Positions 20,956-51,799 of a DNA stretch of 64,000 nucleotides are shown one piece after another. The translations under genes were made by a program, and so were the position numbers. Where the stretch lies: assembly GCF_988242995.1 (NCBI RefSeq), contig NZ_OZ547043.1. The stretch is one strand, 5' to 3'. Under the pieces are notes generated by a model. The model did no database searches and had not been told where the DNA came from. It was given only the letters and a program-made list of their open reading frames with translations. Each line of letters opens with the position of its first letter. The stretch's first letter is position 1.

Positions 20956-20982
20956 TTATCGGCAAGGAGGGGGGAAACTTTA
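20956..20982 (-). promoter_or_regulatory. sigma28 (FliA) class 3 promoter of the tar-tap-cheRBYZ operon
   Basis: minus strand TAAAGTTT-N11-GCCGATAA, exact consensus halves, about 25-30 nt upstream of tar start. Confidence 0.8.
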
Positions 20983-21592: not shown

Positions 21593-24484
<2,892 letters not shown>

Positions 24485-24488
<4 letters not shown>

Positions 24489-25372
24489 GCTTCCTCGGTT
24501 GTCGTCTGTTGTTGCGGATTTTTCACCGCACGCACATGCTCTTCCAGTTCAATAAACGACGGACGTTCGCTGGAATAGAGCGTTTTGCGACCAAACTCAA
24601 CGGCGATAGGCGGTGCGTAACCGTTCAGATTAGAAAGCAGAGTGACTTTGACGCACTGCATCATTTTGCTGGTTTCGGCGCTTTTCTGACGTAAAACAGT
24701 CGCTAATGGGGAAATAAATCCGTAAGCCAATAAAATGCCGAGGAAAGTCCCCACCATCGCATGTGCGATAAGCGCACCCAGCTCGGCGGCAGGACGATCG
24801 GCTGAACCTAACGCGTGAACGACCCCCATTACAGCCGCAACAATACCAAACGCCGGAAGTGAGTCCCCGACCAGCGCCAGACTGTTCGCCGGGACTTCTG
24901 CCTCGCTTTCGTGCGTCTCAATCTCTTCATCCATCAGGGCTTCGATTTCGAAGGTGTTCATGTGACCGCTGATAATCAGGCGCAGATAATCGACGATAAA
25001 ATCAAGCATGACGCTATCCGCGAGGATGCGTGGGTAGCTGGCGAAGATCTCGCTCTCACGGGGATTTTCAATATCACGTTCCAGCGAAAACATCCCCATC
25101 TGCCGCGATTTTGCCATCAACCGATAAAGCAGAGCCAGCAGATCCATATACATTGCTTTGGTGTATTTGGAGCGACGAAACAGCAACGGCAGCGCCTTCA
25201 GCGTGCCTTTAATCGCTTTGCCATTATTGCCGACGATAAACGACCCAATCCCTGCACCGGCAATAATCACCAGTTCAGCGGGTTGATAGAGTGCTCCAAG
25301 GCTTCCACCGGTCATCAAATAACCGCCGAAAACTGTACCGAGAACAACCAGGTAACCTAATAAGATAAGCAC
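24485..25372 (-). CDS. motA: flagellar stator protein MotA (295 aa)
   Basis: ORF track; four TM segments. Confidence 0.96.
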
Positions 25373-25440
25373 GACATCATCCTTCCACTGTTGACCATGA
25401 CAGGATGTTCAGTCGTCAGGCGTTAACGCGCGATTGGGGC

Positions 25441-25535
25441 AAAAAAAAGCAGCGGTACGTCGTTACCGCTGCTGGAATGTTGCGCCTCACCGTATCAGTT
25501 AAACAGCCTGTACTCTCTGTTCATCCAGCAGTTGT
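25441..25535 (-). ncRNA. motR: MotR-like sigma28-dependent sRNA region (motA 5' leader ending at the flhC-proximal terminator)
   Basis: sigma28-like promoter inside flhC 3' end (25543-25568) followed about 95 nt downstream by intrinsic terminator (stem gcagcggtaacgacgtaccgctgc plus U8, 25441-25472); fits published MotR description; ends approximate. Confidence 0.45.
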
Positions 25536-26077
25536 GGGATAATATCGGCAGGATTCTGGGAAAGTTTACGTCTTTTTACTGCCCTGGATGGCGGTTGACA
25601 TAAGCTGCAGGCAAAGCTGCCAACAGGCTGGTGAGCGTGGGTAATAAAATTCCCGCCGCAGCAGTTGCAGCTGGAAAGTTGCAGTAATCCACTTTCAACA
25701 AACCGCACCAATGTCCAGGCACGAGTTAATGCCAGCAGTGGTCCTTCTTCTGCTTGTGGGCACTGTTCAAGGTATAAACGGTAGGCTTTGATCACCGCAT
25801 CGACGCCATTACACAAACCGGTTTTCAGTAAAAACTGCCATGCATTACAGAACATCGAAGCATGAACGTTTTGTTCCCAGGTCATAAACCAGTCGGTTGA
25901 GAATGGCAGCATGCCTTTCGGCGGTGGGCTTCCGCGCAGTTCTTTATAAAGTTTTATCAGGCGTCCGCGACTTAACTGTGTTTCGCTTTCCAGCATCTGC
26001 AAACGAGCGCCCAGGGTGATCAATTCCATTGCCAGCTGAATATCCCGCGCTTCCTGAACAATGCTTTTTTCACTCAT
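25499..26077 (-). CDS. flhC: flagellar master regulator subunit FlhC (192 aa)
   Basis: ORF track; C-terminal Cys cluster (CNCCGG...CSLCQPP). Confidence 0.96.
25543..25568 (-). promoter_or_regulatory. sigma28-type promoter within flhC coding sequence (motA/MotR promoter)
   Basis: minus strand TAAACTTT-N11-GCCGATAT, one mismatch in each half versus TAAAGTTT-N11-GCCGATAA. Confidence 0.6.
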
Positions 26078-26079
26078 GA

Positions 26080-26430
26080 TCAGGCCCTTTTCTTGCGCAG
26101 CGCTTCTTCAGGCTGATTAACATCATTCAGCAAGCGTGTTGAGAGCATGATGCCGGTATGAATTTGCTGGAGATCGTCAACGCGGGAATCTTGCGTCAAC
26201 TGAGTAATCGTCTGGTGGCTGTCAAAACGGAAGTGACAAACCAGCTGATTGGTTTCTGCCAGCTTAACCATTTGCGGAAGAGTCAGTGCCGCTAATGTTG
26301 TCGCCATTTCTTCATTTATGCCGAGACGAAACATAGCGGACGCTTTGTCCTGAACAATCAGACGCTGTGCAAGTAGTAAATATGACAAGTTGATGTCATA
26401 AATGTGTTTCAGCAACTCGGAGGTATGCAT
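26080..26430 (-). CDS. flhD: flagellar master regulator subunit FlhD (116 aa)
   Basis: ORF track 26080..26439; start set at [11 protein letters not shown]. Confidence 0.95.
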
Positions 26431-26690
26431 TATTCCCACCCAGAATAACCAACTTTATTTTTATGCGGTTTCACCGCACCCTGTGATGTCGCCGGGAAGC
26501 CCCGGTAAAAATAATTAGCATTAGAATAGTTGCGATAAGCTGCAATAAGCAGAGCCACCTTTTTGGTTTAATAAGTCCTTACAAATAGAAGGGGGTCTTT
26601 ACACTTATCTAAGATTTTTCCTAAATCGACGCAACTGTACTCGTCACTACACGCACATACAACGGAGGGGGGCTGCGATTTTCAATAATG

Positions 26691-26706
26691 TGTGATGCAG
26701 ATCACA
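26691..26706. promoter_or_regulatory. CRP binding site of the flhDC promoter
   Basis: TGTGAtgcagaTCACA palindrome centred about 70 bp upstream of the position expected for the flhDC transcription start (about 200 nt upstream of flhD ATG). Confidence 0.75.
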
Positions 26707-27208
26707 CAAAACACTCAATTACTTAACATAAATGTATAAGTCATACTTTTGTTTTGGGTGTATTTCAATCTGTTAAAAAGTTTTTCGCTACGCTAGCAAG
26801 CAAAAATGAAACAGGAATAATCGAAATGGGATGTTGCGCACAGTTAAAATAACTCACCGTAAATAATCATCTGCTATAAATAATCACTTTCATGCAATAC
26901 CAGATAAGCTATTTTTAAACAGACACTTACCGCACAACAAACTAATTAAATACAAAGAAAGGCAACAATCAACATAATGTTAATGAAATGTTTTACATAT
27001 ATTAACCACTTGTTTAATGCGGAGAATCAGTACACTATTTTCTTATAATTACATTTGAAATTATATGATCACCGGGAGTGATTGATTAATTGTCTTTACT
27101 AATAATCAGACTAATATTTACCTGTTTGACCGAGTTGGGATTGCGTCGTTTCTCCATTAGGAGTAAAGCTTTAATGTCACCTGAAGTTCACAGAATAAGG
27201 AACAGGTT

Positions 27209-27637
27209 ATGAGCTATAGCAATATTCTTGTCGCTGTTGCGGTTACACCGGAAAGTCAGCAACTGCTGGCAAAAGCGGTATCTATCGCCAGGCCAGTAAA
27301 GGGACACATCAGTTTAATTACTCTCGCTTCCGACCCGGAAATGTACAATCAATTAGCCGCGCCGATGCTTGAAGATTTACGCAGCGTGATGCAAGAAGAA
27401 ACGCAAAGCTTTCTTGATAAGTTAATTCAGGATGCGGGGTATCCCGTTGACAAGACGTTTATTGCCTACGGTGAGTTAAGCGAACATATTCTGGAAGTAT
27501 GTCACAAACATCATTTCGATTTGGTGATTTGCGGTAATCACAATCACAGTTTCTTTTCGCGAGCATCCTGCTCGGCGAAAAGAGTGATTGCCTCAAGTGA
27601 GGTCGATGTGCTGTTAGTTCCACTTACGGGTGATTAA
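27209..27637 (+). CDS. uspC: universal stress protein UspC (YecG, 142 aa)
   Basis: ORF track; Usp-family fold signature. Confidence 0.92.
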   Translation: MSYSNILVAVAVTPESQQLLAKAVSIARPVKGHISLITLASDPEMYNQLAAPMLEDLRSVMQEETQSFLDKLIQDAGYPVDKTFIAYGELSEHILEVCHKHHFDLVICGNHNHSFFSRASCSAKRVIASSEVDVLLVPLTGD

Positions 27638-27643
27638 CCGCTC

Positions 27644-30996
<3,353 letters not shown>

Positions 30997-42815: not shown

Positions 42816-43273
42816 AGGAATATCTCCAGAAATAGGGATAACGCTACTGATAGTTAGTCATTCGTATATTAGCGGTTTTTATTGCAACTTTGAAACGTTA
42901 AAAATGGTGGGTATTCGATTTTTCTCTCGTTTTTGTCAATTCGATTGTCCACAGTTATGGTCACGCCCGTCACCAACGGTTTACCGGATCGTTTCACAGT
43001 AAGCCCTACGATGAAATGTGACAAAAATTGACTTTATTCAGCAAAAATGAAAATCAGCCCGCTGAATATGTAACATTAATTAACCCGAACAATACGGGCA
43101 AAAAACATTCATGATAAAAATATTTATTGGTCATTATATTAACGTATTTTATAGCACTGCCGATATCACGCTCAAAAAACAACCACTGCTATTTTTAGCA
43201 AAGCTTATGGTATACTCCGCCGCCTTAACATTTTTCACCGCAAATTTTCATTGCAACATGACGAGGAAAATAA

Positions 43274-49371: not shown

Positions 49372-50077
49372 ATATCCTCCGGCATAGCCGGAGGTTTTTC
49401 AAATGCGCCTGTAAGGCTCTGTTACCAGCCGCGCCCTAACAGGCGCATACGATCTGACATTTGCATTCAACTTCGTTACTTACGGCCCGTAAACGGGCTG
49501 CCCGGATATGGAATCGATAACTGCTCCCCCATTTTATCCTCTTCAAGCTGGTGCTTTATGTAGTCACGTATCTTCGCCGTGTTCTTACCCACCGTATCGA
49601 CATAGTACCCTCGGCACCAGAACTCCCTGTTTCTGTATTTGAATTTCAAATCCCCAAACTGCTCGTAAAGCATCAGACTGCTTTTCCCTTTCAGATATCC
49701 CATAAAGCCGGATACGCTCATTTTGGGTGGGATTTCCACAAGCATATGGATATGATCTGCGCAGCACTCTGCTTCCAGAATCCGTACGCTTTTCCACTCA
49801 CACAGCTTTCTCAAAATACTGCCTATCGCCCTACGCTTCTCTCCGTAAAACGCCAGTCTTCGGTATTTCGGCGCAAAAACTATGTGATATTTACAGTTCC
49901 AGCGGGTGTGCGCTAAGCTCTTTTCGTCCCCCATTGGGACCCCCTTTTGATTTCTTGTTTGACACTTGCAGTTGCCAGACCGCAAGGTGTTTTAACAAAT
50001 CAAAAGGGGTTTTAATAACTGGCTCAAAGCTGAAAGCTTTCCGGAACCCCCAGCCTAGCTGGGGGTTTTCTGTGCAC
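49372..50077 (-). mobile_element. IS200-family insertion sequence (IS200/IS605 group) in the fliA-fliC intergenic region
   Basis: intact 152-aa tnpA matching IS200 TnpA as recalled; terminal hairpin aacccccagcctagctgggggtt at 50045-50067; ends estimated from the canonical ~707-bp element, about +/-30 bp uncertain. Confidence 0.8.
49476..49934 (-). CDS. tnpA: IS200 transposase TnpA (HUH/Y1 ssDNA transposase, 152 aa)
   Basis: ORF track 49476..49985; start at MGDEKSLAHTRWNCKYHIVFAPKYRR; HxH motif (DHIHMLVEIPP) and C-terminal catalytic Tyr region. Confidence 0.92.
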   Translation of the reverse strand: MGDEKSLAHTRWNCKYHIVFAPKYRRLAFYGEKRRAIGSILRKLCEWKSVRILEAECCADHIHMLVEIPPKMSVSGFMGYLKGKSSLMLYEQFGDLKFKYRNREFWCRGYYVDTVGKNTAKIRDYIKHQLEEDKMGEQLSIPYPGSPFTGRK

Positions 50078-50108
50078 AAAAAACCCCGCCGGTGGCGGGG
50101 GTTGAGCG
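50078..50108 (-). terminator. rho-independent terminator of fliC
   Basis: minus strand ccccgccaccggcgggg followed by TTTTTT, 12 nt after fliC stop. Confidence 0.85.
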
Positions 50109-50119
50109 ATAAGTGTAAA

Positions 50120-51583
50120 TTAACGCAGCAGAGACAGTACGTTCTGCGTGGTCTGGTTAGCCTGCGCCAGAACAGAGGTACCCGCTTGTTGCAGGATCTG
50201 CGCACGAGACATGTTAGACACTTCGGTCGCGTAGTCAGCATCTTCGATACGGCTACGGGCAGAAGACAGGTTGTTTACGGTGTTGCCAAGGTTGGTGATA
50301 GCAGAGTCGAAACGGTTTTGTACTGCACCGAGGTCAGAACGCAGATTGTCAACTTTAGCCAATGCTTTGTCGATAGTTTCGAGCGGGTTGGTGGTAGATT
50401 GCAACGATTTTGCTGCATCTTCGTTTACCAGAATCGGGCTACCACCTTCTGATTTGCTCAGATACATGACTTTATTGTTACCAGAAGCAGTCTCCGTTAT
50501 CGTTTTACCATCTGCACTAACATCGTAAGTTGCACCGTTAACAACTAACGTGCTTCCTGTTTTCTTAGCTGCATTGAGATCAAGATCGGAAAGTGTGGCA
50601 GCCTTGTTATCAACTTTGGTTGTCGTATAAAGGCCAGCGCTATTTTTGTAAACTGTCTCACTCGTAATCAAAGAAGCTTTTTTGTCAGCATCTTTCACAG
50701 TAAATGTCACTGACTTACCATCAATTTCTGCAGAATATACACCATTCCCATTGCCATCCGCTGCAGTTGTTGTTGTGAATTCAACTCCATTAAACGTGAA
50801 TTTATCATTCTGTGCTTTATTCTTAGCCGCTGCTGCGAGTGCTGTAGCATCAATCCCTGTACCAGCTATGTTTGTGTCAGATTTAGTTGTCAGTGAACCA
50901 TCTGCTGCACTAACAAAAATATCATTCCCTGTAGTATCTTTAACAGCTCCGCTATCTACGTTAACAGTATAAGCATCACCGCCAACATCATAGTTATCAG
51001 TACCTGTCGCTTTAAATTTAGAAATCAGGTCACTGCCAGTTGCTTTCTGCGCGCCATCGATATTAAAACCGTCCAGGCCGAGAGTTTTCGCATCAATTTT
51101 TGCCAGATTGATAGTGATGGTTTCACCATCATTAGCACCAACCTGAATTTTCATTTCATTATTTTCAGCAAGGACTTTCACGCCGTTAAACTGAGTTTGC
51201 TCAGATACACGGTCAATTTCTTCCAGACGTTGAGTAATTTCAGCCTGGATAGAAGAAAGATCGCTGTCAGAGTTAGTACCGTTAGTTGCCTGAACAGTCA
51301 GTTCACGTACACGCTGCAGGTTGTTGTTAATTTCATTCAGCGCACCTTCAGTGGTCTGCGCAACAGAAATACCATCATTCGCGTTACGGGAAGCCTGAGT
51401 CAGACCTTTAATATTTGCTGTAAAACGGTTAGCAATCGCCTGACCTGCTGCGTCATCTTTAGCACTGTTAATACGCAGGCCAGAAGAGAGACGTTCAATG
51501 GCGGAGCTCAGAGAAGACTGAGATTTGTTCAGGTTATTCTGGGTCAACAGCGACAGGCTGTTTGTATTAATGACTTGTGCCAT
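50120..51583 (-). CDS. fliC: flagellin FliC (487 aa); conserved D0/D1 termini with variable central domain
   Basis: ORF track; N-terminus MAQVINTNSLSLLTQNNL and C-terminus ...QNVLSLLR typical of enterobacterial flagellin. Confidence 0.96.
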   Translation of the reverse strand: MAQVINTNSLSLLTQNNLNKSQSSLSSAIERLSSGLRINSAKDDAAGQAIANRFTANIKGLTQASRNANDGISVAQTTEGALNEINNNLQRVRELTVQATNGTNSDSDLSSIQAEITQRLEEIDRVSEQTQFNGVKVLAENNEMKIQVGANDGETITINLAKIDAKTLGLDGFNIDGAQKATGSDLISKFKATGTDNYDVGGDAYTVNVDSGAVKDTTGNDIFVSAADGSLTTKSDTNIAGTGIDATALAAAAKNKAQNDKFTFNGVEFTTTTAADGNGNGVYSAEIDGKSVTFTVKDADKKASLITSETVYKNSAGLYTTTKVDNKAATLSDLDLNAAKKTGSTLVVNGATYDVSADGKTITETASGNNKVMYLSKSEGGSPILVNEDAAKSLQSTTNPLETIDKALAKVDNLRSDLGAVQNRFDSAITNLGNTVNNLSSARSRIEDADYATEVSNMSRAQILQQAGTSVLAQANQTTQNVLSLLR

Positions 51584-51652: not shown

Positions 51653-51679
51653 GTATCGGCACCTGAATTTCGAACTTTA
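51653..51679 (-). promoter_or_regulatory. sigma28 class 3 promoter of fliC
   Basis: minus strand TAAAGTTC-N11-GCCGATAC about 70 nt upstream of fliC ATG. Confidence 0.75.
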
Positions 51680-51772: not shown

Positions 51773-51799
51773 TAAACTTTGCGCACAAATTGCCGATAA
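51773..51799 (+). promoter_or_regulatory. sigma28 promoter of fliDST
   Basis: TAAACTTT-N11-GCCGATAA about 40 nt upstream of fliD ATG. Confidence 0.75.

Follow-up and report, generated by a model that had tools for sequence, protein, structure and literature searches.

The Escherichia coli motR locus: transcription from a sigma-28 promoter within flhC into the terminator that precedes motA

Introduction

Near the end of flhC, a sequence that resembles a sigma-28 promoter faces a strong hairpin standing between it and motA, which raises the question of what is made from this promoter: the motA transcript, a short RNA, or both. We analyzed this arrangement in a window of 64,000 nt, by which we mean the whole stretch of contig NZ_OZ547043.1 (NCBI RefSeq assembly GCF_988242995.1) under study, and all positions below are those of the window. 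The region is from E. coli, and of 5426 complete E. coli genomes, 5376 carry the unit and are matched by a 401-bp query.

We are highly confident that the feature is the E. coli motR locus, where sigma-28 transcription runs from a promoter internal to flhC into the terminator that precedes motA. Put as a mechanism, sigma-28 (FliA) RNA polymerase would initiate at A25535, its promoter lying within the final 70 bp of flhC, and a fraction of the transcripts would stop at the intrinsic terminator at 25473-25441, giving the 95-nt Hfq-binding sRNA MotR. The remaining transcripts would read through to become the motAB-cheAW mRNA. In published experiments MotR pairs, via a seed at about nt 46-48, within the coding regions of fliC and rpsJ, with S10 going up and flagellar synthesis being promoted. 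We also infer that the MotR hairpin would be the terminator of the class 1 flhDC operon, which would place three functions in about 130 bp.

The locus is already described and annotated: the promoter was reported by Fitzgerald et al. in 2014 and 2018, and the sRNA, its Hfq binding, its targets and its phenotypes by Melamed et al. in 2023. For the sigma-28 dependence, transcription start site, ~95-nt size, Hfq binding, read-through, targets and phenotypes we draw on this literature, and our own analysis covers the sequence features, the identity to the annotated motR, and conservation and covariation.

Results and discussion

Promoter and start site

All of the genes and elements of the locus are on the minus strand. 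flhD (26439-26080) is followed by flhC (26077-25499, with its TAA stop codon at 25501-25499), and flhC hosts both the sigma-28 promoter and the start of MotR (nt 1-34). motA (25372-24485) begins with a GTG at 25372, where the initial annotation had put its start. Read directly from the sequence, TAAACTTT-N11-GCCGATAT lies inside the final 70 bp of flhC: the sigma-28 (FliA) -35 element TAAACTTT is at 25568-25561, overlapping flhC codons R170(T)-K171-L172-S173(T), the 11-nt spacer is at 25560-25550, and the -10 element GCCGATAT is at 25549-25542, overlapping codons A177-D178-I179. Against the consensus TAAAGTTT-N11-GCCGATAA it has one mismatch per half, two in total. The initial annotation had described just such a motif, and placed it at 25543-25568; the start at 25568 stands, and the other end fell one base short, as the octamer reaches 25542. 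The -10 octamer and A25535 are separated by 6 nt, and the sigma-28 start that had been expected near 25535 equals the annotated and published +1 exactly.

A scan of the window with the sigma-28 consensus gave six matches at three or fewer mismatches against 0.70 expected, and six or more were reached in none of 100 shuffles. Four of the six are at recognizable class 3 flagellar promoters, namely those of tar, fliC and fliD and the site inside flhC. Because the other good matches precede tar, fliC and fliD, the scan evidently detects genuine class 3 promoters. The match upstream of tar (20956-20982) is perfect, and those at 51653-51679 and 51773-51799 are the divergent fliC and fliD promoters. 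Matches with three mismatches are found at 28773-28799 on the plus strand, antisense within otsA, and at 43140-43166, also on the plus strand. No sigma-70-like promoter was predicted between the MotR hairpin and motA.

Identity with MotR

The stretch from 25535 to 25441 on the minus strand (95 nt, with the A at 25535 as +1) is identical at 95 of 95 nt to the ncRNA motR, b4828, of MG1655 (NC_000913.3, 1977208-1977302, complement). The initial annotation had called the arrangement MotR-like and suggested a comparison with the published coordinates; that comparison shows the unit to be MotR itself, with the promoter and the read-through as published. The published reagents and mutations also map exactly. 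The 5'-phosphorylated cloning primer SM001 (5'P-ACAACTGCTGGATGAACAGAGAGTAC) begins at 25535, and the MotR* mutation, described as a change of "TGC at positions 6-8" to GAG, fits the window sequence without adjustment. The seed core GUG (25490-25488, minus strand, MotR nt 46-48) is the triplet that becomes CAC in MotR-M1, a mutation that we took from primers SM467/468 in supplementary file 3 of PMC10578931. The 229 bp that run from the flhC 3' end up to the start of motA contain one difference from MG1655, in a synonymous Arg codon at 25585.

MotR overlaps its neighbors on both sides. The flhC coding sequence supplies MotR nt 1-34 and the flhC stop codon is nt 35-37, and in the RefSeq annotation of MG1655 motR overlaps the 3' end of flhC as well. 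The 95 nt double as the start of the motAB-cheAW leader, and the remainder of the motA 5' leader (25440-25373, minus strand), which is in read-through transcripts only, contains the motA Shine-Dalgarno. Within that remainder, a predicted pairing joins the Shine-Dalgarno AGGAUG (25383-25378) to CAUCCU (25407-25402), which suggests a structured motA translation-initiation region.

The 95-mer folds modestly better than shuffled sequences (z = -1.82). A search of Rfam 15 over window positions 24000-28000 at E <= 1 gave zero matches, a result that is uninformative on the identity of the unit because MotR appears to be absent from the Rfam 15 families. A 9-codon out-of-frame AUG open reading frame at MotR nt 12-41 has no Shine-Dalgarno and was set aside.

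The fliA dependence and Hfq binding of MotR were shown for the identical sequence in MG1655. Melamed et al. (2023, PMC10578931) report that the motR promoter within the flhC coding sequence also serves motAB-cheAW, and that MotR derives from the motA 5' UTR. They see a ~95-nt band, Hfq co-immunoprecipitation, and lower expression on northern blots in a fliA mutant, hence sigma-28 dependence, and they attribute longer bands to read-through of the MotR terminator. In the same study MotR was found in RIL-seq chimeras with fliC and rpsJ, paired inside the coding sequences of both, and raised S10; the proposed route by which it raises flagellar gene expression is antitermination by S10-NusB. A chromosomal 3-nt seed mutation, motR-M1, gave fewer flagella and less motility. 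As for the promoter, Fitzgerald et al. (2018, bioRxiv 10.1101/188474) demonstrate its activity and the selection on it, describe it as the most conserved FliA promoter, and state that it constrains FlhC residues Ala177-Asp178, hence the term 'duon'.

Compared with MotR of E. coli K-12 (b4828; eLife 12:RP87151), the window has the same sequence, promoter, start, terminator, seed triplet and position between flhC and motA, so the unit itself is without differences. MotR shares with UhpU, FliX and FlgO its membership in the sigma-28 regulon, Hfq binding and an origin in mRNA UTRs (PMC10578931). Those three, however, are 3' UTR sRNAs, FliX and FlgO being made by processing and UhpU from its own promoter inside uhpT, whereas MotR is a 5'-leader product made by termination (PMC10578931).

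Strain variation and neighboring loci

The window strain differs from MG1655 around the unit: it has no IS1 upstream of flhD, another fliC allele and a much shorter fliC 3' UTR. Between flhD and uspC (26440-27208) MG1655 has IS1H. AsflhD, an antisense RNA in the MG1655 annotation, would span the 5' end of flhD. In the stretch 49476-50120, the fliC 3' UTR is only ~45 nt, with the terminator CCCCGCCACCGGCGGGGTTTTTT common to K-12 kept, and an IS200/IS605-type transposase open reading frame (49476-49985, minus strand) follows directly. Most of the 195-nt K-12 sRNA FliX (b4827), a published MotR antagonist, has no counterpart in the window.

Two MotR alleles that differ beside the seed, at window positions 25482 and 25487, are common in E. 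coli. The allele of the window and of K-12, GGUGAGGCGCA (A49/C54), is represented by ~3557 genomes at least 99% identical to the window unit, and the other, GGUGUGGCGAA (nt 49 A>U, nt 54 C>A), by ~1600 genomes at least 99% identical to the GGUGUGGCGAA form. The U49 form is common to Citrobacter, Salmonella and others. In a catheter isolate, E. coli 20Y000092 (NZ_CP138217.1), there is an 11-bp deletion aligned to window 25441-25451, which removes TGCTTTTTTTT, that is, the last 3 nt of the terminator 3' arm and the whole U tract. Judging from the sequence, this deletion should abolish both MotR formation and flhDC termination, although as a single genome it may be an assembly error.

Conservation across Enterobacterales

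We compared 80 flhC loci from across the Enterobacterales, one per species, 78 of which were usable. In all 78, TAAACTT[T/A]-N11-GCCGATA[N] is found at a fixed position, -67 from the flhC stop, while its 11-nt spacer varies freely. Synonymous-codon entropy in 71 distinct species is ~1.3 bits along flhC and 0.3-0.5 in the last 24 codons. It is zero in codons 170-172, which carry the -35 element, and in codons 177-178 of the -10 element, where GCC GAT is invariant. The promoter is the one described by Fitzgerald et al., and our synonymous-site analysis reproduces the selection on A177-D178 and on the -35 codons.

Two further stretches are frozen at synonymous sites in the same 71 species, and neither is discussed in the available part of that text (10.1101/188474). 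Codons 182-187 (CAA CTG CTG GAT GAA CAG) correspond to MotR +2 to +19, and have zero entropy at 182-185 and 187 and 0.11 bit at 186. Codons 167-168 (GTA AAA) also have zero synonymous entropy and codon 169 (AGA/AGG) is nearly invariant; this A-rich stretch, at 25571-25579 and directly before the -35 element, may belong to the promoter.

The terminator has a narrower distribution. GCAGCG...CGCTGC followed by U6-U9 occurs in 69 loci, which belong to Enterobacteriaceae and Erwiniaceae, and this form is absent from Serratia, Pectobacterium and Brenneria, where different hairpins follow the flhC stop. Among 65 distinct aligned homologues, 98.1% of the cells in the terminator stem are paired, and the three distal stem pairs hold 23 compensatory cells, a number reached in none of 500 shuffles. 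Between the flhC stop and the terminator, MotR nt 38-59 are highly variable between genera in these 65 sequences, and a GUGG-type motif at the published seed is kept in most of them.

In the three Serratia loci the sigma-28 promoter is kept and an unrelated GC-rich stem directly follows the stop codon. The six Pectobacterium and Brenneria loci also keep the promoter, followed by an unrelated ~12-bp stem and then UUUCUUCC. These genera may make non-homologous leader RNAs. Because they keep the promoter and differ downstream of it, the promoter is the oldest and most constrained part of the unit, and the MotR-type sRNA body is characteristic of Enterobacteriaceae together with Erwiniaceae. This fits the statement in PMC10578931 that the sRNAs are conserved among some Enterobacteriaceae.

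Given the layout, one might ask if the short RNA is simply a by-product of attenuation, arising since the motA promoter lies upstream of the flhDC terminator, and has no function in trans. Some short product is indeed unavoidable, as every sigma-28 transcript has to cross the terminator, and the variability of nt 38-59 among genera, together with the Serratia, Pectobacterium and Brenneria loci, where the promoter is kept and both the hairpin and the segment between differ, speak for this reading. Against it stand the GUGG-type core of the seed, kept in most of the 65 species, and the published Hfq co-immunoprecipitation and RIL-seq chimeras with fliC and rpsJ. The motR-M1 phenotypes, obtained with the neighboring genes untouched (PMC10578931), largely refute the by-product reading, and we consider it improbable.

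A purely accidental origin of the sigma-28 match and the hairpin, with no role in transcription, is hardly credible and we regard it as refuted: loose consensus scans do find terminator-like sites near background (3 against 2.4 expected), but the six sigma-28 matches against 0.70 expected, the fixed motif position, the frozen synonymous sites (71-78 species) and the compensatory stem changes all contradict it, as do the published ChIP-seq, transcription start site, reporter and northern data (PMC10578931 and 10.1101/188474).

The terminator and the end of flhDC

Hfq-binding sRNAs typically end in a Rho-independent terminator whose hairpin precedes a long U tract at the 3' end. MotR has such a 3' end: the stem has 10 pairs, 6 of them G-C (25473-25464 with 25457-25448, minus strand; MotR nt 63-72 with 79-88), closed by a 6-nt loop (25463-25458, nt 73-78) and followed by a U8 tract (25448-25441) that forms the MotR 3' end. 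The strong hairpin with U8 that had been noted ahead of motA is thus present at 25473-25441, and it ends 68 nt before the motA GTG. A loose terminator consensus finds 3 sites in the MotR region where 2.4 are expected, which is about the background rate. From the flhC stop to motA there is no strong terminator-like site other than the MotR hairpin.

Since the flhC stop is followed by this hairpin 25 nt further on, with no alternative before motA, it is reasonable, judging from position, that it also terminates flhDC transcripts. In every lineage that we examined some hairpin is found right after flhC, even where the MotR-type hairpin is missing, which fits with flhDC termination at this point. 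Our literature search for published 3'-end or terminator data on flhDC and the motA leader found nothing usable, and the accessible text and supplements of Adams et al. (2021) mention neither motA, flhC nor MotR.

A candidate antiterminator helix

MotR nt 5-12 and nt 60-67 are exactly complementary, giving a perfect 8-bp helix whose 3' strand covers the first five positions of the terminator 5' arm. The 5' strand of this candidate antiterminator, CUGCUGGA, is at 25531-25524 on the minus strand, within flhC codons L183-L184-D185, and the 3' strand, UCCAGCAG, is at 25476-25469 on the same strand and overlaps the terminator stem at nt 63-67. As an addition to the main explanation, we tentatively suggest that the nt 5-12/60-67 helix is an intrinsic antiterminator that sets the split between MotR and motAB-cheAW, a proposal that we think is more likely to be wrong than right. 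The helix would form before the terminator 3' arm is transcribed.

Folding of nascent RNAs is consistent with this order of events. In folds of nt 1-67 through nt 1-82 the helix has a probability of ~1.0 (-19.9 kcal/mol), and not until nt 88 has been made is the terminator the structure of lowest energy (-26.9 kcal/mol, against -23.1 kcal/mol with the helix forced). The MotR* change at nt 6-8 abolishes the predicted helix (-9.8 kcal/mol); MotR* is a derivative that was found by chance and is reported to be 'more abundant', with the reason not given (PMC10578931). The helix dominates the predicted folds of the nascent RNA for 63 of the 65 species, and across the 65 C61 and C62 are invariant and U60 nearly so, even though they lie outside both the terminator stem and flhC. 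When nt 1-62 were shuffled, 4.6% of 1000 leaders sequestered nt 63-67 of the arm as fully as the natural one, which is suggestive and not decisive. As a rough guide, a 7-mer complement within 95 nt has a chance expectation of about 0.1-0.3.

Several observations weigh against the helix. It is paired in 99.4% of cells but without covariation, since 6 of the 8 pairs never vary and there are zero compensatory changes, so constraints from flhC coding, from the initially transcribed region and from the terminator could account for its conservation. The 5' strand shows the same invariance in Pectobacterium, Brenneria and two of the three Serratia loci, all of which have no partner strand; in the third Serratia locus (L081) the 5' strand has diverged. 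In E. albertii the predicted helix is lost, the inner helices of the nascent fold are either weak or unconserved, that fold has a z-score of only -1.24, and the abundance of MotR* could equally reflect greater stability.

Two extensions of the idea were rejected. In the full alternative structure P1+P2+P3, P2 is weak and has one pair broken in 30 of 65 sequences, P3 is 47% paired and not conserved, and only P1 is conserved and was retained as a hypothesis. We also considered that flhC translation covering nt 5-12 could make the terminator efficient for flhDC and leaky for the sigma-28 transcript. The geometry does not support this, and the idea was dropped because nt 5-12 would lie beyond the reach of a ribosome at the stop codon (nt 35-37).

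Attenuators with alternative terminator and antiterminator helices are known, for example in the trp and pyrBI leaders. The MotR leader is similar in having a terminator before the structural genes and, upstream, a candidate that competes for its 5' arm; in prediction, the helix that overlaps this arm and the terminator are mutually exclusive. Unlike those attenuators, the MotR leader has no identified leader peptide, ligand or protein sensor, its terminated product is itself a trans-acting sRNA, and its competing helix is a candidate without covariation. Were the helix to act as an antiterminator, which is a rather doubtful possibility, it would explain the abundance of MotR* and would add a third layer of selection, that on RNA structure, to the C-terminal codons of FlhC.

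Conclusions

The locus as such changes nothing, given that both the promoter and the sRNA have been published and the reference genome already lists motR, and what the initial annotation recovered, to the exact base and from sequence alone, is a real, densely overlapping regulatory unit. Our additions are modest. The MotR-type terminator is limited to Enterobacteriaceae and Erwiniaceae while the promoter has a wider distribution; synonymous sites over MotR +2 to +19 are frozen as well; and a conserved alternative helix could explain both how motAB-cheAW transcription passes a strong terminator and why MotR* accumulates. The antiterminator is a hypothesis from modeled folds, and it may be a lead that is not in the published literature. 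If it is true, it would be a simple structural mechanism that partitions the output of one promoter between a regulatory RNA and an operon.
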